A stretch of DNA of 64,000 nt, from NCBI GenBank assembly GCA_947631745.1, contig CANRMM010000001.1:1367-65366 (forward strand), written 5' to 3'. The notes under the pieces were generated by a model, which saw only the letters and a program-made list of their open reading frames with translations, did no database searches and had not been told where the DNA came from. Positions 3,137-53,703 of the stretch are shown piece after piece. Within the stretch, counting starts at the first letter, position 1; every line of letters starts with the position of its first letter. Origin of the DNA: an uncultured Clostridia bacterium. GTDB taxonomy: Bacteria; Bacillota; Clostridia; TANB77; CAG-508. Position numbers and translations under genes: made by a program.

Positions 3137-4669
3137 TTATGCCCTTTCTATTAAACTTTCTCCAGTCATTTCCTCTGGTTTTTCCAATTCTAATATATCT
3201 AACATAGTTGGCGCCAAATCTGCTAGTTTTCCCTCTTTTAATGTAACATCATCAATTCCTACTAACATTAATGGTACAGGATTTGTTGTATGAGCCGTAT
3301 GTGGCTCTCCTGTCTTATAATCTATCATTTGTTCAGCATTTCCATGATCAGCAGTAATTATTAGAGCACCGTTTTTTTCTTTAATTGCATCTACTACTCT
3401 TTGAACACATTCGTCAATCTTTTCAATTGCTTTTATTGCCGCTTCTAAGCTTCCAGTGTGCCCTACCATATCAGGATTTGCATAATTTAATATAATAACA
3501 TTATATTTTTCAGATTTAATAGCATCTACTACTTTCTGAGTTACTTCTTCAGCACTCATTTCTGGTTGTAAATCATAAGTTTCTACCTTAGGTGATGGTA
3601 TTAATATTCTATCTTCTCCAGGATATTGTTTTTCTTCTCCACCGTTAAAGAAAAATGTAACATGAGCATATTTTTCTGTCTCCGCAATTCTTAGTTGTGT
3701 TAATCCCTGCTTACTAATATATTCTCCAAAAGTATTTTTTAGTTCTTGTGGTTTAAATGCAATATGCACATTTGGAATTGTCTCATCATATTGTTTAAAA
3801 CATACATAATATAGCTCCATTTTTTTAGTTTCAAATTCATTAAAATCTGGATCTACTAATGTCCTTGTAATTTCTCTTGCCCTGTCTGGTCTAAAATTAT
3901 AGAAAATAACAGAGTCGTGATTTTCTATTTTTGCAATTGGCTCATCTTTTACACAAATAACCGTTGGTTCTACAAATTCATCAAATACTTCTTTTTGATA
4001 AGATGCTTCAATTGCTGAAATTGCTGAACTAGCTTTATTTCCTACTCCATTCACTAATGCATCATAAGCTTTTTGAACTCTTTGCCATCTCTTATCTCTA
4101 TCCATACTATAGAATCTGCCTGAAATTGTTGCTATTTTCCCTACACCTTTTTCCTTCATTTTTTCTTCCAATTTAGAAATATAACCTTCAGCAGATGCAG
4201 GTGGCGTATCTCTACCATCTAAGAAACAATGTACATATACATCTTCAAAATCTTTCCTTTTTGCTAACTCCAAAAGAGCATACAAATGACGAATATGGCT
4301 ATGAACCCCTCCATCTGAAAGCAAGCCTAATATATGTAATTTTGAATGATATTTTTTACAATTTTCGATTGCTTCTGTTAGTTCTGATACACTAAAAAAA
4401 TCTCCATCTTCTATTGATTTTGTAATTCTAGTTAAGTCCTGATATACAATTCTTCCAGCACCTATATTTGTATGTCCTACTTCTGAATTTCCCATTTGTC
4501 CTTCTGGTAATCCTACTTGCATACCACTAGTATGAATAATAGTTGTAGGACATGTTTTCATTAGTCTATCAATATTAGGTGTCTTCGCAAGTTTAACTGC
4601 ATTTCCCTTTTCATTCTCATTAATGCCAAATCCATCTAATATCATTAGCATTGTCATTTTTTTGTTCAT
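3137..4669 (-). CDS. gpmI: 2,3-bisphosphoglycerate-independent phosphoglycerate mutase.
   Basis: 510 aa, typical iPGM sequence and operon position. Confidence 0.95.
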
Positions 4670-4689
4670 TTCTCTTACTGCTCCTTTAT

Positions 4690-5445
4690 TTATTCTTTTA
4701 CACTTTCAATTATATTATAAAATTCATCTACTTTTAAACTAGCTCCTCCTATAAGAGCTCCATCAACATCTGAAGTTTCAAATAATTCTTTACTATTAGA
4801 AGATTTTACACTTCCTCCATATTGTATAATAATTTTATCTGCTACATTTTTTCCATATAAATCAGCTATTTCGCTACGGATTGTTTCTGCCATATTATTA
4901 GCATCTTCTGTTGTAGCTGTTTTTCCAGTACCTATTGCCCAAATTGGTTCATAAGCAATAATCAAATTAGAAACTTGATCATCAGTTAAACCTTCTAAAT
5001 CTAACTTCACTTGACTTTTTACAACTTCATCCTGTCTTCCTACCTCACGTTGTTCCAAAGTCTCTCCTACACACAAAATTGGCTTTAGCTCATTTGAAAA
5101 TGCTGTTTTTAATTTTTTATTAACTGTTTCATCTGTTTCATTAAAATATTGTCTTCTCTCTGAATGTCCAATTATAACATATTCTACACCAATTGATTTT
5201 AGCATCTGAGCTGAAACTTCTCCTGTATAAGCACCACTTTGTTCCCAATGCATATTTTGTGCTCCTATTTTAATATTAGTGCCTTGTGCATTCATTAAAG
5301 CATAAAATAAGTCTGTATATGGTACACAAAGAATTATCTCACTATCTTTGTCTTTAACTAAAGGTGTTAATTCTTCTATAAATTTAATGGTAGCATCTGG
5401 AAGCATATTCATCTTCCAGTTGCCCGCTATCACTTTTTTTCTCAT
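4690..5445 (-). CDS. tpiA: Triose-phosphate isomerase.
   Basis: 251 aa. [11 protein letters not shown] and GGASLK motifs. Confidence 0.95.
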
Positions 5446-20683: not shown

Positions 20684-21340
20684 CTAATTACTTCCTTTTA
20701 AATGCTCTTTTATATTATTAACAGCCTCATCCAAATTTTTTGGACAAACAGAATATAATGTATTGTTTCCTTTATAAAAGTCTAATAATTCTTGTGAATT
20801 TTGATGATATACTACCAATCTTTTTCTTACAGTTTCCTCATTATCATCATCTCTTTTTACCAATTTACTACCACAAATATCACAAATTCCTTTTTCCTTT
20901 GGAGGTCTTGTTTCCAAATTATAAATTGCTCCACAAGATTTATTTGAACAAGTTAATCTGCCAGCTAGTCTTTTTACAATTACATCATCAGGCACATTAA
21001 GTTCAATGGCAATTTGAGATTGATTCGGCCTTTTTTCTGTTAAAAATTCTGATAAAGCTTTTGCTTGTACAGCTGTTCTAGCAAATCCATCTAATATTGC
21101 TCCATCCGCTACATCATCTTCAGATAGGCGAGCCTTAATCATTCCCATTGTAACATCATCTGGAACTAATAGTCCTTGCTTCATATATCCTTCAGCTTTT
21201 TTTCCAAGCTCTGTTTGATTACTAATTTGTTCACGGAAAATATCTCCTGTTGACAAATGTTTTAAGTTCATATCTTGAGATAATATTTTTCCAATGGTAC
21301 CCTTCCCAGTACCAGGTGCTCCTAACATTACTATATACAT
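20684..21340 (-). CDS. adk: Adenylate kinase (with zinc lid).
   Basis: GAPGTGKGT P-loop, lid with CxxC...CDICG. Confidence 0.9.
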   Translation of the reverse strand: MYIVMLGAPGTGKGTIGKILSQDMNLKHLSTGDIFREQISNQTELGKKAEGYMKQGLLVPDDVTMGMIKARLSEDDVADGAILDGFARTAVQAKALSEFLTEKRPNQSQIAIELNVPDDVIVKRLAGRLTCSNKSCGAIYNLETRPPKEKGICDICGSKLVKRDDDNEETVRKRLVVYHQNSQELLDFYKGNNTLYSVCPKNLDEAVNNIKEHLKGSN

Positions 21341-32085: not shown

Positions 32086-32418
32086 CTACAACTTAATCTC
32101 TATATCAACACCTGCTGGCAAATCGATTTTCATCAAACTATCAACAGTTTTTTGTGTTGGATAAAGAATATCAATAACTCTTTTATGTGTTCTCATTTCA
32201 AATTGTTCTCTTGAATCTTTATCTTTATGTGGAGAACGCAAAATTGTTATTATTTCCTTTTGTGTTGGTAATGGAATAGGACCTGAAACCTTTGCTCCTG
32301 TCTTTTTAGCAGTATCTACTATCTTTTCAGCAGACTGTTCTAAAACTACATGATCATAAGCCTTTAATCTTATTCTGATTTTTTCACTTGTTACCGTATT
32401 TTCCTTCTTTGTTGCCAT
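32086..32418 (-). CDS. rpsJ: 30S ribosomal protein S10.
   Basis: 110 aa, [10 protein letters not shown]..., S10 similarity. Confidence 0.9.
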
Positions 32419-32687
32419 TAAAAATTCCCTCCTTAAATATATTTTATTTTAGGTCGGAAGCTATAAACGCATCCTGGTGTTTCTATATTTACCAATATTA
32501 AAACCCAAATTCGCATGAAAAACTTGGGATAAGTCTGCATTTATAATAACCATTTATTCATTAAATAAATGGCTTAACTTACCGCCCTGGTCTTAGCCAC
32601 GACATACTCTGTAAGAGTTCCCTCCATCAAAGCTTAACACTTTGTGTAGCCACATCTTACTTCATCGCTAAATAACATGCTCTCATA

Positions 32688-32715
32688 TTATATAACAATA
32701 AATCAGTAAAGTCAA
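32688..32715 (-). promoter_or_regulatory. Candidate sigma-A promoter of the S10 operon (TTGACT-16nt-TATAAT) with a roughly 270-nt leader.
   Basis: Minus-strand ttgactttactgatttattgttatataat. The long structured leader is consistent with the L4-autoregulated S10 leader (inference). Confidence 0.45.
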
Positions 32716-32880
32716 CTGTTTTGTTCATTTTTATTACACTTTTATGACATTTTTGTAACAATTCTTCTTACAAAGTTAATTTTAAAAATAACATAAAAAA
32801 GAATACCTTATTTGAATATTTAAATCAATTTTCATTTAAAGTATTCTTTTTATTTTTTATTTGTATATTGTACCTATCAG

Positions 32881-33000
32881 ATTTTATTTTCCCTTTTTTT
32901 ATATTTCTTAGGCTTCTAAGTACAACCTATTTAAGTCTGTCCCTCAAGTGACAAAAGTGTCACTTTAAAGAACGTCCCCAAAGTGACAAAGTGACAAATC
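32881..33000 (+). repeat. REP-like repeat, copy 1 (about 120 bp), containing GTGACAaaagTGTCAC.
   Basis: Near-identical to 43240-43385. Shares the GTCCC(C)AAGTGACA...GTGACAAAGTGACAA core with 50703-50766 (reverse) and 51706-51783. Confidence 0.6.
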
Positions 33001-33696
33001 AATAAGTTGTTGTTCTAAGAAACTCATATTGTCTTTATTTTCTTGCAACGTTTCTATAGAAATAGCATTATCTAAATAGAACTCTCCTACTGCCGTTCTT
33101 TGAAGTTCTTTCATAAAACCAACTGTCTCTAACTTCTGTGCAATGTCTTCACATAAACTACGAATATATGTACCTTTTGAACATTTTACTTGAAATTCGA
33201 TTTCTTTTTCCTTTAAATTAATCGCTATCAATTTAATCTCATAAATGTTAATATTTCTAGGTTCTACCGTTACTTTTTCACCTTTTCTTGCATATTCATA
33301 AAGTTTTTTTCCATTTACTTTAATTGCAGAATACATTGGTGGAATCTGTTTCTGTTCTCCTAAAAAAGATTTTAAAACTTTTTTTACATTTTCTTCTGTC
33401 AATTTTTCTTTTATATATTTCTCATTTAATTCTTGTTCTTCTATAATCTTACCTTCCACATCTGCCGTATCTGTTTTTACACCTAACTTAAGTATTACTT
33501 TATATTCCTTATCATGATTTGTTAAATAACTGGAAAGTTTTGTTCCTTTTCCTATTAAAAGAGGAAGGACTCCTGTTGCATTTGGATCCAATGTTCCAGT
33601 ATGTCCCACCTTCTCTTTATATATTTTTTTTACAATAGCTACAATATCATGAGAAGTATATCCTTTTGGTTTATTCACCACTAAGATTCCATCCAT
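32965..33696 (-). CDS. truB: tRNA pseudouridine(55) synthase TruB, C-terminally truncated.
   Basis: 243 aa with the catalytic TruB core. The last 11 codons and the stop lie inside REP-like copy 1. About 50-60 aa short of typical TruB. Confidence 0.8.
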   Translation of the reverse strand: MDGILVVNKPKGYTSHDIVAIVKKIYKEKVGHTGTLDPNATGVLPLLIGKGTKLSSYLTNHDKEYKVILKLGVKTDTADVEGKIIEEQELNEKYIKEKLTEENVKKVLKSFLGEQKQIPPMYSAIKVNGKKLYEYARKGEKVTVEPRNINIYEIKLIAINLKEKEIEFQVKCSKGTYIRSLCEDIAQKLETVGFMKELQRTAVGEFYLDNAISIETLQENKDNMSFLEQQLIDLSLCHFGDVL

Positions 33697-35067: not shown

Positions 35068-35077
35068 AATGCCCTCC

Positions 35078-38077
35078 TTATTTTTTCACTTCTTCCATCA
35101 CGAAGAATTCTAATATATCCAATTCTTTTAAGTCATCATACTTTTCAATTTGCATACCACATTCATAACCTTTTGTCACTTCTTTTACATCATCTTTAAA
35201 TCTCTTTAAAGATACAAGTTTTCCTTCATGAATAACAATATTGTCACGAATGACTCTAACTCCTGCATTTCTTTCTACTCTTCCGTCTAATACATAGCAT
35301 CCTGCAATTGTCCCAACATTTGATACTTTGAAAGTCTGTCTTACTTCTGCATTTCCAATTACGTTTTCCTCAAATACTGGATCTAACATTCCTTTCATAG
35401 CAGCTTCTACATCTTCAATAGCTTGGTAAATAACAGAATACTGCTTAATTTCAACTCCATCTTTTTCTGCCATGTCCTTCGCACTAATATTTGGTCTTAC
35501 ATCAAATGCAATAATAATTGCCTTTGCTGCTTTTGCAAGTTGAACATCAGACTCATTAACAGCTCCAACGGCAGAGTGAATAACTTTTACCTTAACTTCA
35601 TCATTTGATATTTTTTCTAATGATTGTTTTAATGCCTCTGCTGTTCCTTGAACATCTGCTTTTACAATAATTCCTAATTGTTTTAAGTTTTCATTTTCCA
35701 TTTTTTCAAATAAATTGTTAAGAGTAACTTTATTGCCCTCTGTCATTGCCTTTTCTCTTTCTTCACGTTTACGCTTTTCAATTAAATGCTTTGCCATTTT
35801 TTCATCTTTTACTTCATAGAAAGTATCTCCTGCTTCAGGTACATTAGTAAGTCCCATAATTTCAACTGGTGTTGATGGTCCTGCCTTTTTAATCTTCTGA
35901 CCTTTATCATTTCTCATTGCTCTAATTCTACCAATTGAAGTTCCTACAACAATTGTATCTCCTACATCTAGAGTTCCTCTTTGTACTAACATAGATGCAA
36001 TTGGACCCTTTGCCTTATCTAATCTTGCTTCAATAACTGTACCTTTTGCCTGTTTATTTGGATTTGCTTTTAATTCCCTCATGTCTGAAACTAACAATAC
36101 CATCTCTAATAAGTTGTTTATATTAAGTCTTTTCTTAGCAGAAATTGGTACGAAGATAGTATCTCCTCCCCATTCCTCTGGTACTAATTCATATTCCATT
36201 AGTTCTTGCTTAATTTTATCAACATTAGCTCCTGGTAAATCAATTTTATTAATAGCTACAATAATTGGAATTTCAGCAGCCTTAGCATGATTAATTGCTT
36301 CTATTGTTTGAGGCATAACACCATCATCTGCTGCTACAACAAGAATAGCAATATCTGTAATTTGTGCACCTCTTGCTCTCATACTTGTAAACGCCTCATG
36401 TCCCGGTGTATCTAAGAAAGTAATTTCTCTATCATTAACATTTACTTTATAAGCACCTATGTGTTGAGTGATACCTCCCGCTTCACCTTCGATTACATTT
36501 GTACTACGGATTGCATCCAATAAAGAAGTTTTACCATGATCTACGTGTCCCATAACAACAACAACAGGTGGTCTTGGTTGTAATTCCTCTGGTGAATCCT
36601 CTGTCTCATCAAATAAGATATCTTCCTCTTTTACTTCTTCCTTCTTTGTTGCAGTAATACCAAATTCAGATGCAACTAAGTATGCTGTATCAAAATCAAT
36701 TGAATTATTAATAGTTGCCATTATTCCATAGTTAAATAATTTTTTAATAACTTCTGCTGTTGTCTTTTTCATTTCTGCTGCTAAATCTTTTACTGTAATG
36801 TTTTCAGGAATTACAATCTCTTTTAATTCAAAAATTTTCTGTTTATTTCTTTCTTCCTCATTTTTCTGAATTTTTTTCTTGTTTTTCTTTCCTCGTGCAG
36901 TAGTTAAATCATAATATTCAAGCATTCCTCCATCTTGTTCTTCAAACATATTTGACAATCTATCTACCTGCTTTAAATCCTTTAATTTTCCATCATCAAA
37001 TTCTTCAAATCTTCCTGACTTTCTTGATTTAGTAGCTTTTTTGATAGATTTTTGTTCATCATATTTGCTATTTGCCTTCTGTTTTTCCATTACTTTATTT
37101 GAATAGTCTCTTTGCAATTCTTTTTCTACAACTTCTGTAGTCATAATGTTTTTAATATTTTTGTCAATGCCTTTTTCATCTAGTGGTCTATTACGATTAA
37201 ATTCTCTATCTCTATTTCCATTTTGATTATTATATCCATTATTATTGCGATAATTGTTTCTACCATCATTGTTGTTTCTATAATTATTTCCATTCTGATT
37301 ATTACGATAATTACTCCTATTATCCCCATTTTGATTATTTCTATAACCATTATTATTTTGATTACGATAATTATTATTACGATTGTCAAAATTTCTATTG
37401 TCATGATTATGATTATCAAAATTTCGATTTACTTGTTGTTCTCTTGGTCTATAATTATTGGTATTATGAATAACATCATTTTTCTGTTCTTTTTCTTTAA
37501 CAGTATTATTTTCCACTTTTACTTCCGGTGTCATATTTTTTTCTTCTACTTTTACTTCCTCTTTCTTTTCTTCTTTAACTTCCTTTATAGGTTCTTTCTC
37601 TTCTTTTATAACAACTTCTTTCTTTTCTTCTTTTGATTTATCTGATTTTATACCAAAAAGTTCACTAACAGTAAGTGGTTTAGTTTGTTTATTACGATAA
37701 ACAATATTGTAATCCTTACTATTATTTCTCTCTACAAATCCTACATCTTTTCGATTCGTTTCAATCTTTTTCGATGACTCCTGTTTTGTTTTTTCTTCTT
37801 CATCTATAATAACTTCTCTTCGTATAATAACAGGCTTAGACTCCTTTTTTACATTACCTGCATTCTCTTTTTTAACAGTCTCTTTTTCCTTCTGCACTTT
37901 ATCATTTTTATCAAAAGCCTCTTTTATTTTATCTACTTGTTCTTCTTCTATATTACTTAGATGACTTGTTACTGCAATTCCTATTTTTTGAGCCTTTTCT
38001 ATAATTTCCTTACTTGTTACTCCTATTTTTTTTGCTAATTCATGTATTTTCATCTTACCCAATAATTTCACCCCCAT
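35078..38077 (-). CDS. infB: Translation initiation factor IF-2 (999 aa) with an Asn/Tyr/Arg-rich low-complexity insert.
   Basis: G-domain [16 protein letters not shown] and full IF-2 similarity. Confidence 0.95.
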
Positions 38078-40357: not shown

Positions 40358-40536
40358 TAGTTTTTCCCCTTTTACAAGATAGAAGAGTGGAACTTGTTTC
40401 CACTCTTCTACGTTAATTATTATGCAGTATTATTATACTGCAATATTTTACCAATTGCAAGTATTTTTATGTATTTTCTTTATTTTTACCTTTTCTTTAT
40501 ATATTTATACCTACTGGATTTTACATATCAGTATTT

Positions 40537-41304
40537 TTAATACTCATTATCATGTAGCATCGTTCCATTTGCATAGAAATTATCTAAATCTTCTACATCT
40601 ATTGTATATAAATCTGTTGGCTCACTATTTAAGTTTATATCGATACTTTCTATCTCTTTCCATCCTTCTTCTGTCTTTACTACATCATCATTTTCTAAAT
40701 ATTCATATCCTTCATACCTTGATAATGACTTCCAGCCTTCTTTTGTATATATTGGATGATACATATTTTGTACTAATGTACTTCCGTCTTTAAATTTAAT
40801 TGTCACAATATCTGTTGCATCTTCATGTATATATGTTCCTGTTACTTTTCTTAGTTCATTTCTTTCTGTTTCTTCGTTGTATGCTACTACTGTATCTCCT
40901 ATTTTTAAATCTTCTATTGCTTTTATATGTCCTTCTACGTCTATTAATACTTGTGAACCTGCTACAATACATTTATTGTGTACTAATATACTATCTAATC
41001 CTACAAAGTAGTCGTGATTATCCTCTACTATCAAATTATATACTTTTATTGTTTCATTGTTTTCTATTCTTTCTATCTTAGTTATCTTCTGTTCTACATT
41101 ATTACTATTAATTAATATATCTCCTACTTTCAAATTACCTGCTTCTGTCCATCCTTTACTCATTACATAAAATGGATGATTTGGTGTTACTTCTACATCT
41201 GCATTTTCTGTATATATTTTTAATAGATTTCCGCTATAATTATGAACTAAAGTTTTTAATACTTCTTTTACTTCTATTTCACGTGTGTCATTAACTCCTC
41301 CTCA
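40537..41304 (-). pseudogene. Degenerate tandem Hint (Hedgehog/intein, BIL-like) domain cassette. TGA sits at the Cys1 position of the first Hint domain.
   Basis: Open frame after TGA (41302-41304): GGVNDTREIEV...TPNHPFYV...VYNLIVEDNHDYFVGLDSILVHN-K-CIVAGSQVLIDV...LYTIDVEDLDNFYANGTMLHDNEY-stop. The only in-frame ATG (41163) lacks an RBS. Confidence 0.6.
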
Positions 41305-41329
41305 AATAGTTCAAACCATGGCGAAATCT

Positions 41330-41428
41330 AAAAATATCACCTGATACAACTTCTCTTTCATAATATAGCTGTCAATCTATAGCAAAATTTAAAAATATCA
41401 CCTGATACAACTTCTCTTTCATAATATA
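41330..41428 (-). repeat. Two 38-bp perfect direct repeats (41330-41367 and 41391-41428) straddling the stop codon of ORF 41358..43232.
   Basis: aaaaatatcacctgatacaacttctctttcataatata occurs twice. Copy 1 encodes YYEREVVSGDIF in the ORF frame; copy 2 is in a shifted frame. Confidence 0.6.
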
Positions 41429-43232
41429 ATTCTTCGTTGTCTGCTGACCAAGTTAATCCTTCCCAATCGCATTCATAATAATAACCTCTACCAAAATTAA
41501 CCGACGTTCTTTCTTGTGTAGTCACTTTAACACTTCTAGCATTCAAAGGAACACTAATCTTCTTACTTTCTGGTTCAGAGCTCCAATTAAATGCTCCAGG
41601 TGTAAAAGGAATTGATATTGTTTCACTCGATAATTCACTTCCATCACCATCATACCAAGTCACTAAATATTCAAATGGAGCATAAACAACACTATCCCAG
41701 TCATTATTGTCTTCGGCCCAAAGTCCCCTCGCCAAACCATTCAAAACCTCGCTATACTCACCTTTAATTGGAAACCCTCCATCCCAGGTTCTACGCAATT
41801 CATATTTTTCTCTATATTCTGGACTACACTGTTTCGACCATTTTTCAGCCAAAGGATCGTAAACACTTTTGTAATACAAATCCTCACAAAATGCTTCCAT
41901 AACGAGCGACATCAGCTCGTCACCGGCGTCAGCCCCCTCCTCGATTACATCCATAATATCATAGTATAGTTTGAAATCATGGTAATAATATGCATTATTC
42001 ATACATTTTTGAATGTAATCCTTGGTAAATAATTCGGAATCACCACCATAAGTTACAGTCGTAGCATCTTTAAGGCACGAAACCACATAAGCACTAAAAT
42101 CACCATTGAAATGTTCATTAATAAAATCCTGTTCATGCGAAGAGACGTAATCGTCGACCAAACCTTCCCAACCATCACAGTACTCCCAGTCCAAGTTTAT
42201 TAAATAGTCATCCAAAATAACTTCTCTTTCTATTATAATATATGGCGTTACATCTGCTTCTACCTCCGGTAATTTTTCTCCTTTTGGTATTACTGGTTTT
42301 GGAGTTCCTGTTAACTCTCCTATTCTATTTATTATTATTTCCTTTGCTTCTACATCTCCTTGTGTTACTGTGTATGTATATTCTATTGTTGCTGTTCCGT
42401 TTGGCTCTAATGAATCTATAATAAATTCTCCGTTCTTGCAACTTACCCCTTCACTCATACTTGATACTTTTATTTCTTCATCTCCTGGAAAATATGTTCC
42501 ACTTCCTGCTGTTAGCGTATCTGGTATATGAATATTCTTCATTGTTACTTTGCCTGTATTTTTTACCGTTATTGTCCATTCTATTTCTTCATTCGCTATA
42601 TAATATTCTCCATTTTTTGGAGTTGATGTTACCTCTTTTGTTATCTCAAAATTTGAATTGTCATTTTCTACTATGTTCTTTATTCCATCTACTAATATTC
42701 CTAATTCTCTATTTTCTCTTGTATCTTTTCCATAATACATTACTCTATATGTTTTGCCTTCATCTGTTTCTGCTAACTTTATTGTTTCTTCTGTTTTTGC
42801 TACCTTTGTTATACTTCCTGTCCCTGGTGCTACTTCTTCTAATTTATATACATCTGTACTTCCTTCTCCATTTCCTAATGCTAGCCTTGTTCCTGCTAAT
42901 GTTTCAACATTTATTTTATATACTCCATCTGTTCCTATATCTTCAACTATTCCTCTATCTTGCAAATAATCTATTAAACTTGTTTCCTCTTTTCCAACCC
43001 TTCCTGCCCAGTAATCCGAATATGCCATCTGTATCCTTTCCCACACTGTTGCATGAGTATGCTCTACTTTCCCTCTATCTGCACTTGAAATTAATCCATT
43101 CTCTCCAAATACTGCATTAATACTTATTACTGCCAAAATAATTAATATTACTATTGTTACCACTAATGCTATTAGTGTTATTCCTTTATGCTGTTTCAGC
43201 ACTCCTTTTATTTTCCCTGTTCTTTCTTTCAT
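41358..43232 (-). CDS. Secreted protein with prepilin-like N-terminus, conserved paralogous domain, DUF11-like repeat and a compositionally foreign C-terminal module.
   Basis: 624 aa. KG|ITLIALVVTIVILIILAVISINAVFG. About 160 aa shared with ORF 46127..47371 (about 90% nucleotide identity at the 5' end). TITVKNTGKVTMKNIHIPDTL is a DUF11-like motif. Confidence 0.6.
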   Translation of the reverse strand: MKERTGKIKGVLKQHKGITLIALVVTIVILIILAVISINAVFGENGLISSADRGKVEHTHATVWERIQMAYSDYWAGRVGKEETSLIDYLQDRGIVEDIGTDGVYKINVETLAGTRLALGNGEGSTDVYKLEEVAPGTGSITKVAKTEETIKLAETDEGKTYRVMYYGKDTRENRELGILVDGIKNIVENDNSNFEITKEVTSTPKNGEYYIANEEIEWTITVKNTGKVTMKNIHIPDTLTAGSGTYFPGDEEIKVSSMSEGVSCKNGEFIIDSLEPNGTATIEYTYTVTQGDVEAKEIIINRIGELTGTPKPVIPKGEKLPEVEADVTPYIIIEREVILDDYLINLDWEYCDGWEGLVDDYVSSHEQDFINEHFNGDFSAYVVSCLKDATTVTYGGDSELFTKDYIQKCMNNAYYYHDFKLYYDIMDVIEEGADAGDELMSLVMEAFCEDLYYKSVYDPLAEKWSKQCSPEYREKYELRRTWDGGFPIKGEYSEVLNGLARGLWAEDNNDWDSVVYAPFEYLVTWYDGDGSELSSETISIPFTPGAFNWSSEPESKKISVPLNARSVKVTTQERTSVNFGRGYYYECDWEGLTWSADNEELYYEREVVSGDIFKFCYRLTAIL

Positions 43233-43239
43233 TTATTTT

Positions 43240-43385
43240 CCCCTTTTCTTTTATATTCTTAGTTTTCTAAGTATAACCTATTTAAGTCTACTTATTTAAT
43301 TTTATTCCTTTAAGTCTGTCCCTCAGGTGACAAAAGTGTCACAAATAGGAACGTCCCCCAAGTGACAAAGTAACAAAAATGACAG
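43240..43385 (+). repeat. REP-like repeat, copy 2 (about 145 bp, with an internal tttaagtct duplication).
   Basis: See 32881..33000. Lies between the start of ORF 41358..43232 and mutS2. Confidence 0.6.
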
Positions 43386-43461
43386 GCTACCAAAAATAGT
43401 CTGTCATTGAATATACTAAACAAAAGGCTTTATTGTCCCTTCTTATTTCCATAAAATTACT

Positions 43462-43486
43462 TGTGTGTGTGTGTGTGTGTGTGTGT
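43462..43486. repeat. (TG)12 dinucleotide microsatellite.
   Basis: tgtgtgtgtgtgtgtgtgtgtgtgt, read directly. Intergenic, between divergent genes. Confidence 0.85.
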
Positions 43487-43734
43487 ACTCTCGCAATGGT
43501 TTCAGGTTTTGCCATTTTTTATTATTCCTCTTTCTTTCGTTTATACTTATTTTATACCAATAATATTAACTTTTGTCAACATTGAAATTTATAATATTTT
43601 TTACCCCTGTATACAAGATAATCCTTCTTTTCTTTACAACACTAAAAAGAATACCTTATTAAAATTATGACATTTTCAACAATATTACTATAAAATATGT
43701 TATAATAATATCATTATTTATTTTGGAGGATGTT

Positions 43735-46126: not shown

Positions 46127-47371
46127 TTATTCAGTCCATATTAAAGGATCTTCCTTTGTTCCCTCTCCTTGTACTCTATCAATAGCTGTTGGATTAACTA
46201 TAAAAATTGGTCTTAACTTATTCGTAGCCACATTGCTTCTATAAAAATTTTTATAATAAAAATTTGAATATATACTAAAGCCAGCAATCGTCTCCGGATT
46301 ATAGGTTCTACTTAGAAAATATTCAAGGCCATAATATTCACCTGCACCAGACGTCTTTTGTGCTCTAGAAGACACCCAATAATTTGATTTACTAGTTGTA
46401 TCGAAAATATCAACTCCCAATGATTTCATATTTTGCATCTGTAAAAAATCAATATTAGAATTGCTATCTACATCTTTAATCATTGTATCACCAACTGTCC
46501 ACTTTCCTGAAGTTGCTTTTTCTGCTAAATTTACTAAATCTTTTGATTCAGAATATGGATCATTTGGCACACTTCCTACACATCTTGCACTAGTTACATA
46601 CATATTATTACTTTCATTTACATATTTTTTTGCCTCATTATTCAATGTTTCTATAGCACTATTATATGATTCTACTGCTAATTGCATTTGTTCTGAAGTT
46701 CCACCCTGAGTTAAATCACAATCATTTCCAATCCCAATGTTTTCTCCTACTACATCTGTTGCTATCATTTGTATTCCATAATTAGTTTTATTTGTTTTAT
46801 TATATTCTTCGTCATACATTACTACGCACTCTATTGTTGTACCATTATATGGCAATTGCACATATTTTCCTACTTTGAATTCACTTGCAGTTTGAGGCAA
46901 ATCTTTTTTCTTATCTCCTTCTAGCACTCCCAAGTTTCTAGGTCCACTTTCTCCATAATAATTTACACTATATGTCTTATCTCCATTTGCTTCTACGGTT
47001 TCTTCTAATTTATATACATCATTTTGGTCATCTGTTCCATTTCCTAATGCTAACTTTGCTCCTGCTAATGCTACTGTGTTTATTTTATATCCTCCATTAC
47101 TGGTCTGTTCTGTTCCTATTATTTCTTTTTCTTGTAAATATGATATTAAATCTTTTTTCTCATTTGCTACTTTCCCTGCCCAGTAATCTGAGTATGCCAT
47201 CTCCATTCTTTCCCATACTGTTGCATGTGTATATTCTACTTCTCCTTTTTCTGTACTTGAAATTAACCCATTTTCTCCAAACACCGCATTAATACTTATT
47301 ACTGCCAAAATTATTAATATCACTATTGTTACAACTAATGCTACTAAGGTTATTCCTTTTTCTCTTTTCAT
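46127..47371 (-). CDS. Secreted protein with prepilin-like N-terminus, paralog of 41358..43232 with an unrelated C-terminal region.
   Basis: 414 aa. MKREKG|ITLVALVVTIVILIILAVISINAVFGENGLISS... RBS AGGAGGA immediately downstream of ppiB. Confidence 0.6.
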   Translation of the reverse strand: MKREKGITLVALVVTIVILIILAVISINAVFGENGLISSTEKGEVEYTHATVWERMEMAYSDYWAGKVANEKKDLISYLQEKEIIGTEQTSNGGYKINTVALAGAKLALGNGTDDQNDVYKLEETVEANGDKTYSVNYYGESGPRNLGVLEGDKKKDLPQTASEFKVGKYVQLPYNGTTIECVVMYDEEYNKTNKTNYGIQMIATDVVGENIGIGNDCDLTQGGTSEQMQLAVESYNSAIETLNNEAKKYVNESNNMYVTSARCVGSVPNDPYSESKDLVNLAEKATSGKWTVGDTMIKDVDSNSNIDFLQMQNMKSLGVDIFDTTSKSNYWVSSRAQKTSGAGEYYGLEYFLSRTYNPETIAGFSIYSNFYYKNFYRSNVATNKLRPIFIVNPTAIDRVQGEGTKEDPLIWTE

Positions 47372-47388
47372 TTGTTATCCTCCTATTT

Positions 47389-50690: not shown

Positions 50691-50702
50691 TTTTCCTCCT
50701 TC

Positions 50703-51783
50703 TTGTCACTTTGTCACTTTGGGGACGTTCCTTTTTGTGACACTTTTGTCACTTGTGGGACACTCCTTCATTCTTTAGATATCGCTCTATATATCATCCT
50801 TTTATTAATACCTAAAATTCTAGCTAGTTGTTCTCTATAAATGCCATCTATTTTACTAGCCTCTTTAATAATTTTATCCCTATACTCTGGCTTGTACCTT
50901 TGTATACTTAGTAAATTATCTATATGTAATTTTCTTCTAATTTCTACTATTGCTTCTTCATCATTTAGTCTAGTTATATTTTCAAATTCTTTTTCATCAT
51001 ATTGTTCTTCAATATTACTCATATTATAGTTTTTCCATAGTTCGATTGCTCTTTGCCTATCCAAACTAAAAATAGATAAAATAAATTCAATATCTGTGAT
51101 TTTTTTATTTCCTACATATTCCTGATAACTGCTCCATTGATATGAACTCATTTCACCTATCCCATCTTTTTGAGGATTTCGATGAATATATCTCTGTACA
51201 TTTAACAAGTAGCTCTCACTTTCAACACTTTTGCTATTAAATCTATTAAAAAAAAGATGACCAATCCTATCATATTTTTTATTAAAATATACTGCATAAG
51301 ACGTCGCTAAGCTTTGCATAATTTTAGAAAGCATATTTTCATTATCTTTTATGAGCATATGAACATGATTACCCATTAAAACATAAGCATATAATTGATA
51401 TTTATATTTATCTTTTGTATCTATAATTTTTTCTATAAACTTTTCTCTATCGTCATTATCAAAAAATATTTCTTGACTATTAATTCCTCTGATAATAACA
51501 TGATACACATTTGTAAAAGATTTTTTACTTTTTCTTGAACTACGAGGCATTATACCACCTTTCCTTTCTTTAAGGTTGAATGCCCCCGTATTCAACTTTT
51601 ACATAAATAAAAATATAGCATAAATTTCACAATCATGCTATATTTTTCACAAAATTTATATATATATTTCAAATATATTTCAAATTTTATAATTAATATT
51701 ATTAAGAGTGTCCCCAAAGTGACAGTTTTGTCACTAAAAAGAACGTCCCCAAAGTGACAAAGTGACAACTAAAGTGACAAAAG
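50703..51783 (-). mobile_element. IS200/RAYT-like unit: Y1 HUH transposase gene flanked by inverted copies of the REP-like repeat.
   Basis: Repeat copy 3 (50703-50766, reverse) and copy 4 (51706-51783, forward) bracket ORF 50768..51550. Confidence 0.6.
50768..51550 (-). CDS. Y1 HUH transposase, IS200/IS605-TnpA / REP-associated tyrosine transposase-like, with a C-terminal HTH extension.
   Basis: NVYHVIIRG..., HUH motif GNHVHMLI, catalytic-Tyr motif RYIHRNP. Start taken at MPRSSRK (ATG 51550) after GGAAAGGTGG. Confidence 0.7.
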   Translation of the reverse strand: MPRSSRKSKKSFTNVYHVIIRGINSQEIFFDNDDREKFIEKIIDTKDKYKYQLYAYVLMGNHVHMLIKDNENMLSKIMQSLATSYAVYFNKKYDRIGHLFFNRFNSKSVESESYLLNVQRYIHRNPQKDGIGEMSSYQWSSYQEYVGNKKITDIEFILSIFSLDRQRAIELWKNYNMSNIEEQYDEKEFENITRLNDEEAIVEIRRKLHIDNLLSIQRYKPEYRDKIIKEASKIDGIYREQLARILGINKRMIYRAISKE

Positions 51784-53703
51784 AAACATTGCGTGAGACC
51801 ATGCAAGACCATTTACCCATGATGGAGTCATAGTATTGTTGTCAATTTGTTCTGATAGAAATCCATGCTCATTAGCACTATTTATAACAAAATCTATGCA
51901 TTCCTTAGCTTTCTGTCTTTCTCTATTAGCTTGATAATACATTGCCATCCATAAAGTTGCTATTGGCCAAGGGTCTTTTCCTCCACGATAGTTATCTCCT
52001 TCAAATCTTAAATATCCCCCTGTATAAGTACGCAATGTCATATTAATTCTTTCTACCGTATTTAGTACTTTCTTTTCTTTTGCTCCAAATAATCTAAATG
52101 GTACAACTGTTGCAAGCATACTAATATCTGTTCTTTGATCCTTGCAATTTCTATACAAGCATTTTAATTTTTCATCATACATATTTTTGGATATATATTT
52201 TTTTATTTCTTCTTGATATTTCTCCATTTTAGTTTTTAATTTACTAATTGCTTCTAATTTTAATCTATTATCTTGATATTCTCCTTCTACTTTTTCATAA
52301 ATATTGAGCATCGCTTGAAATGCTGCATAAATACTAGCTAAAGAGTATAAATGAACTCCTTCTTCCATTTCCCACAAGTCGTAACTATCTGGTAGCTTAT
52401 TTCTTTCTTCTGTATGATATGTCATCTCAATTTCATTTTTTACCACATCACTTTTATCATGAATTCCCATAATGTTTTCAATATAAATACATAAGAATTT
52501 TGATGCATTTTCACACATTTTTAATGTATCTTTTAAGAATTTTACGTCATTTATTTCTTGATAATGCTCATATATTCCATAAATAACACTAGCGGTTTCA
52601 TCAATCTGATATCCCCAGCAAGGTGCTAACTTTCCATCTGTATAAAATCTTTGTTCCCACATTCCATTTTTATTTTGAGTATTCTTACAAAATATCTTAT
52701 AGAACTTTTCCGTTTCCTTATACATTTTTATTTTATCTAATCCTTTTGTAACAAACACTGCATCACGTGGCCAGCAATAGGCATACCTGCCACTTTGTTC
52801 TCTATCTTCATCTACTTCAACAGCAGCTGAGATTCCACCAGTATTGCTATTAATTAAAAGTGGAAATAGTAAAATACTTCTTTTATAAATTTTATTATAT
52901 TTTCTATTGTAATCGGTTGTTTCTGCTTTCAATTCTATGTTAATATGGTCTTTCACATATTTTTTCCAGTATTTTTCTACACTTAATTGTTCTTTAGCAA
53001 CATCCATTTTTCGAATATTGCTTACTTGTGCCATGATTTTTTCTCCGTTATTAACTTCTGAAGTAGATATGTATAAAAAGATGTCTAATTCTTTCTTTTC
53101 CCCTGGTCTAAGAAGACCTACATCATAGCTTACACTAGAGTCAGCACTCATTCCTATGTAATCTTTATCTTGGATTACACCACTACCAATACTAGTCTCT
53201 GAATCATTTAACTGATGACTCAAAACATTTCCCTTTGAGAAAATACACATTGTAGATTGATGACTATATTGTTCTAGTACTCCCTCACTCATCTTTGATC
53301 CTACCATATTGTTATAATCAGACAACAATTTAGAATGTACCAAAAAATTAACATTTAAATCAATAGTATTATGATTTTCAAATATATACCTTTTTATCAA
53401 TACATCCTCTTTTAAAGAAACAAAATCTATTTGCTGCACTTTTAATTCAAAATATGTATTTTCAATCTCTGTATGTAATACATTTGTATCCTCTGTATAA
53501 TATTGCTGATATCGATTATTTTGATCCTCATGTAAATAGATCATACAAGAATCATTAATTTTTACTCCTGTATAAAAATAGTCTATAAACTGTCTATAAT
53601 CTGGTGTATCATACATAAGTCTTAGCAATTCTCCATTTCTAGTATAACTAGCCGTAATATTTTTACCACCAATAATGGCATCGTTCATATATTTCTTCTT
53701 CAT
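51769..53703 (-). CDS. Glycoside hydrolase, GH15 (glucoamylase)-like (alpha/alpha)6-barrel family (tentative).
   Basis: 644 aa with a WPRDA-type motif. The last 6 codons and the stop lie within REP-like copy 4. Confidence 0.45.
   Translation of the reverse strand: MKKKYMNDAIIGGKNITASYTRNGELLRLMYDTPDYRQFIDYFYTGVKINDSCMIYLHEDQNNRYQQYYTEDTNVLHTEIENTYFELKVQQIDFVSLKEDVLIKRYIFENHNTIDLNVNFLVHSKLLSDYNNMVGSKMSEGVLEQYSHQSTMCIFSKGNVLSHQLNDSETSIGSGVIQDKDYIGMSADSSVSYDVGLLRPGEKKELDIFLYISTSEVNNGEKIMAQVSNIRKMDVAKEQLSVEKYWKKYVKDHINIELKAETTDYNRKYNKIYKRSILLFPLLINSNTGGISAAVEVDEDREQSGRYAYCWPRDAVFVTKGLDKIKMYKETEKFYKIFCKNTQNKNGMWEQRFYTDGKLAPCWGYQIDETASVIYGIYEHYQEINDVKFLKDTLKMCENASKFLCIYIENIMGIHDKSDVVKNEIEMTYHTEERNKLPDSYDLWEMEEGVHLYSLASIYAAFQAMLNIYEKVEGEYQDNRLKLEAISKLKTKMEKYQEEIKKYISKNMYDEKLKCLYRNCKDQRTDISMLATVVPFRLFGAKEKKVLNTVERINMTLRTYTGGYLRFEGDNYRGGKDPWPIATLWMAMYYQANRERQKAKECIDFVINSANEHGFLSEQIDNNTMTPSWVNGLAWSHAMFLLSL

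Follow-up and report, generated by a model that had tools for sequence, protein, structure and literature searches.

Background

The systems closest to the locus studied here are the TIRYT transposases and the TIRtrons described by Di Nocera et al. (2013; PMC3733652), for which the TIR consensus GGGGWSAS was given. In the scheme of Quentin et al. (2018; PMC6006769) these proteins constitute subclass 2.1 of the TnpA_Y1 transposases, which is equated with RAYT group 1 and carries an HTH tail; Y---NP is the signature of class 2 TnpA_Y1, and REP-like secondary structure was not found near subclass 2.1 genes in that study. RAYT group 1 as delimited by Bertels et al. (2017; PMC5581495) occurs in Clostridia, with flanking 16-mers that number about 12 per replicon. 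Subclass 2.1/RAYT group 1 is very large, yet its function is untried, and its connection with repeats, where discussed, was said to be weak or absent; we found no biochemical or expression work on members of subclass 2.1 in the literature.

We analysed a 64-kb stretch of DNA from an uncultured Clostridia bacterium (its full length is called the window below), in which a Y1 gene stands between inverted repeats (Table 1). Our preferred reading, to which we give a probability of roughly 0.78, is that the locus is a TIRtron, i.e. a vertically inherited RAYT-family Y1 HUH transposase with its cognate repeat (TIRYT). On the basis of shared features we assign the protein to class 2 TnpA_Y1, subclass 2.1, which is RAYT group 1 or TIRYT of the other authors.

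Table 1. Features of the Y1 locus and of the repeat family in the window
Feature	Position	Strand	Remarks
Y1 HUH tyrosine transposase-like gene	50768..51550	-	260 aa
Repeat copy C	50703..50769	-	downstream of Y1 gene; inverted relative to copy D
Repeat copy D	51702..51783	+	upstream of Y1 gene
Repeat copy A	32931..32996	+	solo copy
Repeat copy B	43310..43385	+	solo copy
GTGACA-N4-TGTCAC palindrome	50737..50752	.	6-bp hairpin in copy C; repeat family D3
Counterpart of the GTGACA hairpin in copy D	51719-51734		
Spacer from Y1 start codon to copy D	51551..51701	-	

The Y1 protein

The product of the Y1 gene contains the motifs YHVIIRG, GNHVHMLI and RYIHRNP and consists of an N-terminal HUH/Y1 domain (residues ~1-145) and a C-terminal helical HTH tail (~146-260). 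Its HUH motif is H62-V-H64 and its Tyr motif Y121-IHR-N125-P126, and the Tyr helix is followed by a serine motif, W139-S-S-Y142. Among 36 homologues H17, H64, Y121, N125 and P126 are invariant, and H62 is conserved in at least 90%. The Pfam family Y1_Tnp ("Transposase IS200 like") matches the protein with E 3.4e-15. In NCBIfam the best model is REP_Tyr_transpos, whose 57.7 bits place it ahead of the IS200 equivalog model (20.4 bits against a cut-off of 55 bits) yet below its own equivalog cut-off of 80 bits, which is in keeping with a divergent subclass and not with the E. coli-type equivalog. A PHROGs search gave no match.

The AlphaFold (AF2) model of the protein (pLDDT 86) has E. coli TnpA_REP, 4ER8, as its top PDB match (E 8.6e-7, rmsd 2.4 Å), which outranks the IS608 and ISDra2 transposases. 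A search of the PDB with the single sequence gave no match; a profile search of PDB sequences reached 4ER8 at E 0.015, and in the profile alignment H62/H64 correspond to H59/H61, and Y121/N125 to Y115/N119, of that structure. The preliminary description had recognised the hallmarks of a Y1 HUH transposase in this open reading frame, and the Pfam match, the 4ER8 fold and the aligned HUH and Tyr residues bear it out: fold and catalytic motifs are established. It had also given the protein an HTH tail of about 150 aa, of which the presence is confirmed and the length is not, as the tail comprises about 115-135 aa. This tail is confidently helical in the model (pLDDT 81-94) and has no significant match among PDB folds. 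HTH_23 matches the tails weakly in 14 of the 36 homologues and HTH_28 in 11 (E <= 0.1, best ~3e-5, all under Pfam's own cut-offs); Bac_DnaA_C matches none of them.

The repeat and its copies in the window

The repeat is about 60 nt long and reads (T)AAGG-TG-TGTCCC-N3-[GTGACA-N4-TGTCAC]-AAAAAGGAAC-GTCCCC-AAA-GTGACAAA. It holds two direct GTCCC-N3-arm units, the first of which is closed as a short hairpin, and ends on the outer side with TTTGTCACTTTGGGGACG. The inner end of copy D is GGGGACAC, where orthologous loci have GGGACAC or GGGACAG. In the window, GTCCCCAAAGTGACA occurs seven times at up to 2 mismatches against 0.05 expected (0 of 100 shuffles had as many), always within copies A, B, C and D, and an nhmmer profile of 38 copies, applied to the window at E<=1, added none to these four.

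A repeat search returned the inverted arms around the gene as 50703-50765 and 51706-51768, i.e. 63 nt with 87% complementarity, separated by 940 nt. The flanking inverted repeats, the GTGACA palindrome (which forms a hairpin in copies C and D) and the contact of the repeat with the radA ribosome-binding site had all been pointed out in the preliminary description, and all three hold. The outer end of copy C, GTGACAAAGTGACAA, adjoins the Shine-Dalgarno sequence of radA, the minus strand at this junction reading ...GTGACAAGAAGGAGGAAAAATG, and its inner end, AAGGAGTGTCCC, falls on the Y1 stop codon. On the other side, the outer end of copy D overlaps the final codons and the stop of a GH15 gene (51769-53703, minus strand).

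Copies A and B, which carry no gene between them and a partner, had been taken for longer versions of 120-145 bp. As copies of the repeat they stand; their greater length does not, since the extra 55-70 nt (32883-32938 and 43232-43289, 88% identical) are common to A and B only and lie outside the repeat family. Copy A seems to have arisen by segmental duplication of the region around copy B and not by transposition. The truB reading frame takes its last 10 codons and its stop from the outer end of copy A (...LSLCHFGDVL and stop), and the inner end of copy B faces the start of a pilin-like gene (41358-43232, minus strand).

The spacer upstream of the Y1 gene has hairpins of its own. An AT-rich 12-bp hairpin at 51609-51646 looks like the terminator of the GH15 gene and is present in seven of nine loci compared (it is missing in L046 and L050). 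A second one lies at 51575-51596, with a GTTGAAT/ATTCAAC stem and a GGGGGCAT loop; apart from the window, only L007 and L024 have this stem intact. A GGGGCA-like motif is seen again in most Y1-carrying loci.

In an alignment of 44 copies five inner stem pairs of the repeat hairpin are almost invariant, and covariation is therefore confined to the outer pair; the covariation score of 0.080 was matched by 24 of 500 shuffles and beaten by one slid control. No Rfam family reached its gathering score on the repeat copies. Several other identities of the element were considered and rejected: a RAGATH-25 match on copy D (19 bits, E 0.08) was not reproduced in other copies, the direct GTGACA repeats are, compared by eye, unlike the CtsR operator (GGTCAAA-N3-GGTCAAA) or CIRCE, and a GTG start within the element is in frame with the downstream ORF in 9 of about 20 cases, a share that does not clearly exceed the one third expected. 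A promoter role was likewise dismissed, promoter-like matches being at chance (8 versus 8.8 expected).

On the model of E. coli TnpA_REP and IS608 TnpA, the Y1 protein would act on single-stranded DNA, where it would recognise the hairpin together with GTCCC, and Y121 would cut and rejoin the DNA with a metal ion held by H62, H64 and N125. Catalysis, the choice of strand, the place of the cut and any activity at the present day are inferred. The HTH tail probably contributes binding of double-stranded DNA.

Dispersal of the repeat in related genomes

The repeat has four sites in the window and also occurs beyond it: a search of related Clostridia MAGs with its exact terminal 21-mer gave 28 loci, spread over about 11 of these genomes, and three of them have seven to eight occurrences each. 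A contig scan with AACGTCCCCMAAGTGACAAAGT among GTDB representatives, a set without the species of the window, gave no match. The best-sampled related MAGs have at least 8-11 copies, and about 45 full copies lie in the 294 kb of the 28 loci. They take the form of singlets scattered among short intergenic spacers, of gene-less inverted doublets, and of doublets that enclose the Y1 gene, singlets being commoner than doublets. Inverted pairs, about which the preliminary description had asked, therefore exist both with the gene inside and without it. The Y1 gene is present in only 3 of the 28 loci, each time bracketed by the repeat; its inverted architecture and the dispersal of the repeat are established by these data.

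Gene-less doublets (in L018, L021, L026, L041 and L013) have their inner ends facing, as does the pair around the Y1 gene, and form a non-coding palindrome of about 125-130 nt, which resembles a REPIN and can close as a hairpin of about 60 bp. For two of them, from L041 and L026, folding gave -56 and -32 kcal/mol (z -15 and -10); matches of doublets to miRNA precursors were discarded, as they arise only from the long-hairpin shape. That the occupancy of sites differs between species is established: the doublets of L026, L036 and L021 occupy sites that are empty in the window, such as the 10-nt infB-rbfA spacer, in a comparison without an outgroup that does not assign the direction, insertion or deletion. 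Under the TIRtron reading such doublets may be moved or maintained in trans by the Y1 protein, while the Y1 gene itself would remain fixed upstream of radA.

Non-coding elements of this length, bounded by TIRs, could also be MITEs moved by an unrelated DDE transposase, the association with Y1 being incidental. The retention of repeats in a relative whose locus has no Y1 gene any more fits such an origin. We nevertheless hold it to be scarcely credible: target-site duplications were not seen, by eye, at five doublets, every Y1 orthologue examined has its own version of the repeat around it with arms that follow the protein, and a non-exhaustive inspection of the loci found no DDE transposase gene adjoining a copy.

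The relative in question is the close relative Lapin-016 bin4, which has lost the Y1 gene at the locus and keeps at least 8 well-conserved repeat copies, so that persistence of the repeat is not visibly dependent on the gene. This genome may carry a Y1 copy elsewhere. The retention of repeats in it speaks against the TIRtron reading, as do the low copy number, the RAYT equivalog score under its cut-off, covariation confined to one stem pair, filled and empty sites of unassigned direction and the probable duplication behind copy A.

The position of the copies relative to genes can be interpreted in more than one way. In about 17-20 of 44 copies the outer end adjoins the Shine-Dalgarno sequence of a co-oriented gene, 9-28 nt before the start codon (radA, disA, dnaK, rbfA and serS-like genes are among them), and the copy upstream of dnaK is retained in four species (L029, L031, L033, L038). 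On the one hand, the repeats might be primarily cis-regulatory or structural elements of the host, either operators to which the HTH tail binds or RNA hairpins situated in 5' UTRs and in the spacers of operons, and the Y1-HTH protein a fully domesticated DNA-binding factor that mobilises nothing. Besides the packing against Shine-Dalgarno sequences and the constancy of the dnaK copy, this is favoured by inner stem bases that are conserved as sequence and not by covariation, by the fixation of the gene beside radA over deep divergence, and by the repeats that outlast the Y1 gene in Lapin-016 bin4. However, catalytic HUH, Tyr and Asn residues that are universal or almost so among 36 homologues would not be expected in a pure DNA binder. 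The neighbouring genes vary by species and form no obvious regulon, sites differ in occupancy between species, many copies adjoin stop codons instead of start codons, and neither the promoter-like matches nor Rfam indicate a regulatory element. The packing against Shine-Dalgarno sequences would be produced equally by insertions that survive in spacers of 10-60 nt. We consider a primarily regulatory or structural role in the host unlikely.

On the other hand, the 60-nt element could have been co-opted by the host, with the Y1-HTH protein binding its sites as ssDNA or dsDNA, coupling the state of replication or repair to expression and doing more than mobilise DNA. Selection or target choice would then set the outer end right at the Shine-Dalgarno sequences and stops of housekeeping and stress genes (radA, disA, dnaK/grpE, rbfA), and Y1-HTH would have been fixed upstream of the radA-disA DNA-repair operon throughout the history of the clade. 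This is a speculative proposal to which we attach little probability.

Inheritance of the gene and its repeats

The genomic context of the gene agrees with descent along with the chromosome. Orthologues at 73, 62, 53, 52 and 49% identity all lie between GH15 and radA, and the order GH15-Y1-radA-disA is kept, with flanking repeats that bear GTCCC, down to 49% identity. The identity of Y1 declines in step with those of RadA, DisA and GH15. The same neighbours were found at all 10 places listed for P0011 (25 contigs read), and on five of the six contigs that carry the gene of the window protein, the sixth being the ~1-kb contig L002. The window and each set of loci from a related genome contain a single Y1 copy. 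The gene is vertically inherited, single-copy and chromosomal.

The flanking repeats change together with the protein. Each Y1 orthologue examined (8 species, down to 42% identity) lies between repeats of a version peculiar to it, with hairpin arms such as TGCCA/TGGCA in L007, CTGACA/TGTCAG in L050 and TTGGGA/TCCCAA in L046; the terminal arm shifts with the hairpin arms in L050 and L046 and remains GTGACA in L007. Even a homologue of 42% identity in another gene context has a 65-nt TIR that is 95% complementary and contains GGTCCC. The gene co-evolves with its flanking repeats, in that the arms change with the protein.

These data also bear on whether the segment 50703-51783 is an ordinary autonomous insertion sequence of the IS200/IS605 type that happens to be present here in one copy. 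The name of the Pfam family is in line with this, and among the 120 best homologues there are 42 for which the sole source is a contig of about 0.8-1.3 kb, a length that fits the gene with its flanks, like collapsed repeats; contig L002 breaks exactly within the flanking repeats. Such short contigs, however, arise because the flanking repeats are multi-copy, not the gene. With an IS200 equivalog score far under its cut-off, a Tyr motif of the form Y---NP (class 2) and not Y---Q (class 1), a single gene copy in constant surroundings, and ends that are inverted repeats, where IS200/IS605 elements have asymmetric left and right ends, we judge an insertion sequence to be very improbable. Plasmids rarely carry relatives of the protein: 28 of 72,556 records do so, and these relatives are distant, below 41% identity throughout.

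Significance

A profile of the Y1 protein matches 53,098 clusters when public data are grouped at 50% identity. Within this large group the present clade is a compact case, with one fixed gene and a 60-nt cognate element that has GTCCC and hairpin arms tracking the protein. It also offers gene-less doublets, sites that are filled or empty between species, and a relative with natural loss of the gene, whereby the idea of RAYTs as "domesticated transposases" becomes open to biochemical and comparative tests in Firmicutes. The locus adds an example to a known, barely studied class of domesticated transposases, and leaves knowledge in kind unchanged.

Comparison with known systems

An earlier interpretation of the locus as a REP/REPIN-RAYT arrangement, described far less in Clostridia than in Proteobacteria, is correct in its RAYT-like part and in the statement on Clostridia, but not as regards classical high-copy GTAG-REPs. 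Given the low copy number, the non-GTAG repeats and the HTH tail, that interpretation is supported but refined, and because the group has already been reported from Clostridia, the case is not new in kind.

IS200/IS605 transposases (IS608, ISDra2) share the HUH/Y1 fold with the protein described here and, presumably, hairpin-guided cleavage and rejoining of ssDNA in the absence of target duplication. In contrast to them, our locus has Y---NP instead of Y---Q, ends that are inverted, no tnpB partner and no multiple copies, and its chromosomal position is fixed and syntenic.

The likeness to classical REP/REPIN-RAYT systems (4ER8; Pseudomonas RAYT groups 2 and 3) is closer. The nearest solved fold is 4ER8, a gene present once and inherited vertically lies between inverted hairpin repeats, inverted doublets without the gene close into long hairpins with the same arms as the repeats that flank it, and repeats are kept at orthologous sites. 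However, the motif 5' of the hairpin is GTAG in classical REPs and GTCCC here, where GTAG is absent, and the REP unit is a palindrome of 20-40 nt, compared to a bipartite unit of about 60 nt with a 6-bp hairpin. Classical REPs have tens to hundreds of copies, mostly as doublets, whereas we found about ten per genome, with singlets prevailing. REPs are situated mainly downstream of genes; the copies described here lie mostly before starts or flush with stops, in very short spacers. The C-terminal HTH domain is an addition not found in classical REPIN-RAYT systems, and the protein stays below the RAYT equivalog cut-off.

The best agreement is with TIRYT, subclass 2.1 or RAYT group 1, which has the Y---NP Y1 protein, the serine motif past the catalytic helix and a tail of the HTH_23/HTH_28 type. 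TIRYT genes likewise lie within inverted repeats of about 60 nt that contain GGGGWSAS (here GGGGACAC), and are accompanied by a moderate repeat family of singles and dimers, with few copies of the gene. Published TIRYT cases are mostly from Proteobacteria and Acidobacteria, whereas ours belongs to an uncultured, low-GC gut clade of Clostridia. While Quentin et al. found no REP-like secondary structure in the vicinity of subclass 2.1 genes, each TIR here carries a short hairpin, the arms of which vary between orthologues, and a terminal copy of its 5' arm.

Repeat copies in the window

The Y1 gene, which encodes 260 aa, lies between a GH15 gene and radA (see table). As the preliminary description had proposed, it is enclosed by two inverted repeat arms, and two further copies stand alone. 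The 15-mer GTCCCCAAAGTGACA, with up to two mismatches, has seven occurrences in the window where 0.05 are expected, always within one of the four copies A, B, C and D, and a profile from 38 copies found no fifth copy there. The greater length ascribed to the solo copies A and B turned out to be a 58-nt stretch common to these two alone. At B it includes the ribosome-binding site and the ATG start of a pilin-like gene; at A both are decayed, with ATC replacing ATG, and the next gene, rpsJ, follows only after about 460 nt. Because this stretch with its decayed start is common to A and B only, copy A appears to have arisen by partial duplication of the region around copy B.

Copy B contains an internal 28-nt duplication beginning with TTTAAGTCT, and the spacer that separates this copy from mutS2 includes a (GT)n microsatellite of about 9 units. 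At the corresponding position the relative Lapin-016 lacks about 3.2 kb that include copy B and also encode the pilin-like protein (624 aa, prepilin-type N-terminus, CLIPPER domains); paralogues of it in L032 and L039, as well as a fragment in the window, are likewise found beside repeat copies. Around copy A, truB is followed by a spacer of about 550 nt and the S10 operon (rpsJ, rplC, rplD), and the usual ribF-rpsO-pnp genes are absent; this unusual order suggests a rearrangement in a small genome. A 58-aa ORF is a by-product of copy D. The Rfam model RAGATH-25 matched the core of copy D (19 bits against a gathering score of 49, E 0.08), which we treated as chance, the match being absent from copies in three related loci; no Rfam family fits the repeat.

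Coordinates of the features in the window and in related Clostridia loci
Feature	Window (strand)	Related locus	Remark
Copy A	32931-32996 (+)		solo
Copy B	43310-43385 (+)		solo
Copy C	50703-50769 (-)		downstream of Y1 gene, adjoins radA Shine-Dalgarno
Copy D	51702-51783 (+)		upstream of Y1 gene, inverted relative to C
Inverted arms	50703-50765 / 51706-51768		63 nt, 87% complementary, 940 nt apart
58-nt stretch at A and B	32883-32938 / 43232-43289		88% identical, beside inner ends
Y1 gene	50768-51550 (-)
GH15 gene	51769-53703 (-)
truB end in copy A	32965-32996		LSLCHFGDVL, then stop
GH15 end in copy D	51769-51783		LSL, then stop
AT-rich hairpin, T run	51609-51646		12 bp
Second hairpin	51575-51596		loop GGGGGCAT
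D-Y1 spacer counterparts		L007 5880-5960; L013 2110-2190
Y1 region, Lapin-016	50691-51790	L015 6589-6760	syntenic
3.2-kb stretch	40469-43720	L015 815-897	absent in L015
Pilin-like gene	41358-43232 (-)
Pilin-like fragment	near 46985-47382
truB to S10 operon	32086-33696
(GT)n microsatellite	43463-43480
58-aa ORF	51592-51768
RAGATH-25 match	51713-51757		rejected
Doublet site	about 4669-4720	L026 3559-3684	empty in window
Doublet site	20699-20771	L036 1047-1249	empty in window; junction AAA/AGGAAG directly at Shine-Dalgarno
Doublet site, 10-nt infB-rbfA spacer	35070-35078	L021 4319-4445	empty in window
grpE between inverted copies		L029 2962-3655; L033 316-1007

Identity of the Y1 protein

The protein carries the motifs VYHVIIRG, GNHVHMLI and RYIHRNP and matches Pfam Y1_Tnp (E 3.4e-15), and its proposed identity as a Y1/RAYT transposase is supported. 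The best NCBIfam model is the REP-associated tyrosine transposase (57.7 bits, below the 80-bit equivalog cut-off), against 20 bits for the IS200 model. In an alignment of 36 homologues H17, N61, H64, Y121, H123, N125 and P126 are invariant, and H62 and a W-S-S-Y motif (139-142) are invariant or at least 90% conserved. Among PDB structures the AlphaFold model (pLDDT 86) is closest to 4ER8, the REP-associated transposase of E. coli (E 8.6e-7, rmsd 2.4 A), followed by the IS608 and ISDra2 transposases. A profile alignment places H62/H64 on H59/H61 of 4ER8 and Y121/N125 on Y115/N119, of which N119 is a metal ligand (Quentin et al., PMC6006769); by analogy with solved relatives, Y121 would perform hairpin-guided single-strand cleavage and rejoining. 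The signature Y---NP denotes class 2 (TnpA_REP), as opposed to Y---Q in IS200 (PMC6006769). The last 115 residues are confidently predicted as helical and have no significant match among solved structures; many homologues show weak HTH_23/HTH_28 matches in this C-terminal part.

With clustering at 50% identity, the 36-homologue profile finds 53,098 clusters at E<=1e-3; at E<=1e-30 the number is 5,164, and among the best 150 the match is mostly near full-length. The few relatives on plasmids are distant ones. Among the best 120 homologues 42 are known from contigs of 0.8-1.3 kb only, and contig L002 breaks inside the repeats flanking Y1, both of which are consistent with many genomes in which the flanks, rather than the gene, are repeated.

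The repeat family in related Clostridia

The repeat extends well beyond the four sites: the exact terminal 21-mer GAACGTCCCYAAAGTGACAAA occurs in 28 loci from about 11 Clostridia MAGs (species representatives), with 7-8 exact copies apiece in three of them. By profile, 294 kb of this 28-locus set contain about 45 full copies, and related genomes carry at least 8-11 each. The consensus, TAAGGTnTGTCCC-N3-nTGACA-N4-TGTCAC-AAAAAGGAAC-GTCCCY-AAA-GTGACAAA, holds two direct GTCCC-N3-arm units, 35 nt apart, the first of which is closed into a 6-bp hairpin. In 44 aligned copies only the outer stem pair covaries (G-C to C-G, U-G or U-A in 11 sequences) and the five inner pairs are nearly invariant; the structural argument therefore leans mainly on the comparison of orthologues.

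Three forms exist: singlets; inverted doublets, with AAGG "inner" ends face to face across 8-10 nt (L013, L018, L021, L026, L041) or with longer spacers (L023/L037, L036); and doublets enclosing the Y1 gene (window, L007, L017, L024, L040). The two doublets that were folded, L041 and L026, give hairpins of about 60 bp, at -56 and -32 kcal/mol respectively, with z of -15 and -10; singlets fold no better than shuffled sequence. The doublet hairpins match the REPIN picture, but copies are far fewer here.

Three doublet-bearing sites of relatives are collinear with empty sites in the window, and no target-site duplications are visible at them. Insertion in the relatives or precise loss in the window lineage, unpolarised for want of an outgroup, would either way imply mobility. 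Other copies are old; the one upstream of dnaK is common to four species. In two species grpE, like the Y1 gene, is flanked by inverted copies, one of which adjoins the dnaK Shine-Dalgarno sequence with its outer end.

About 30 of 44 copies have their outer (GTGACAAA) end at most 28 nt from an ORF boundary; this end adjoins the Shine-Dalgarno of a co-oriented gene in about 17-20 and touches or overlaps a stop codon in about 13. The outer ends of A and D supply the final codons and the stop of truB and GH15, respectively, and of seven orthologous loci examined five retain the GH15 overlap (L013 and L046 do not). This placement could reflect a target preference, or simply survival where genes are dense and spacers measure 10-60 nt. 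In the element, promoter-like matches stay at chance level. Between D and the Y1 start, an AT-rich hairpin with a T run, present in seven of nine loci compared, probably serves as terminator of GH15; the GGGGCA motif of a second hairpin recurs down to the 49-53% orthologues.

Inheritance of gene and repeat

Of the genomes found, the rabbit-gut MAG Lapin-016 bin4 is closest to the uncultured Clostridia bacterium of low GC content that carries the window; its locus L015 shows synteny with the window, at 77-85% nucleotide identity (RadA 94% identical). The Y1 gene is missing there together with its 5' hairpin and the downstream repeat, and the upstream repeat is retained, as is the AT-rich hairpin; at least eight copies occur elsewhere in this possibly incomplete MAG, which would represent a natural case of Y1 gene loss. 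Around a 62% Y1 orthologue all 10 places shown agree (FtsK, hypothetical gene, RNase J-like, GH15, Y1, RadA, DisA, PPIase, MutS2), and orthologues of 53% and 49% keep the position GH15-Y1-radA. Y1 identity declines in the same order as that of RadA, DisA and GH15, and drops faster.

Each orthologue is surrounded by its own repeat version: GTCCC and the general layout are constant and the hairpin arms vary, from GTGACA/TGTCAC in the window to TGCCA/TGGCA in L007 (terminal arm still GTGACA), CTGACA/TGTCAG in L050 and TTGGGA/TCCCAA in L046 (terminal arm altered in parallel in both). In another gene context, a 42% homologue is flanked by a TIR of 65 nt that is built on GGTCCCAAATGTGCA and shows 95% complementarity.

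Comparison with known systems

The preliminary reading as a REP/REPIN-RAYT arrangement is supported for a RAYT with inverted repeats, but not for a classical GTAG REPIN: the locus is best read as the TIR-flanked, HTH-tailed RAYT subclass, here with a low copy number of the repeat. Di Nocera et al. (PMC3733652) described RAYT-like genes with long flanking TIRs instead of GTAG REPs, as TIRtrons encoding TIRYTs; their moderately abundant TIR families occur as singles, dimers or clusters, have GGGGWSAS in common, compared with GGGGACAC at the inner end here, and in some cases contain self-complementary tracts. In TnpA_Y1 subclass 2.1, whose defining features are a serine motif and an HTH at the C-terminus (HTH_23, HTH_28 or DnaA_C-like), fall 20 of 26 TIRYTs and 291 of 292 RAYT group 1 sequences, and Quentin et al. 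found no REP-like structures beside its genes (PMC6006769). Bertels et al. (PMC5581495) report RAYT group 1 from Clostridia and give about 12 copies per replicon for the flanking 16-mers. Because all these published features fit, the present case is best placed, by shared features, with TIRYT / subclass 2.1 / RAYT group 1. To this picture it adds a TIR with an internal hairpin and conserved GTCCC motif that tracks the protein across a clade, a Y1 gene fixed beside radA throughout that clade, and repeat sites that are filled in some species and empty in others.
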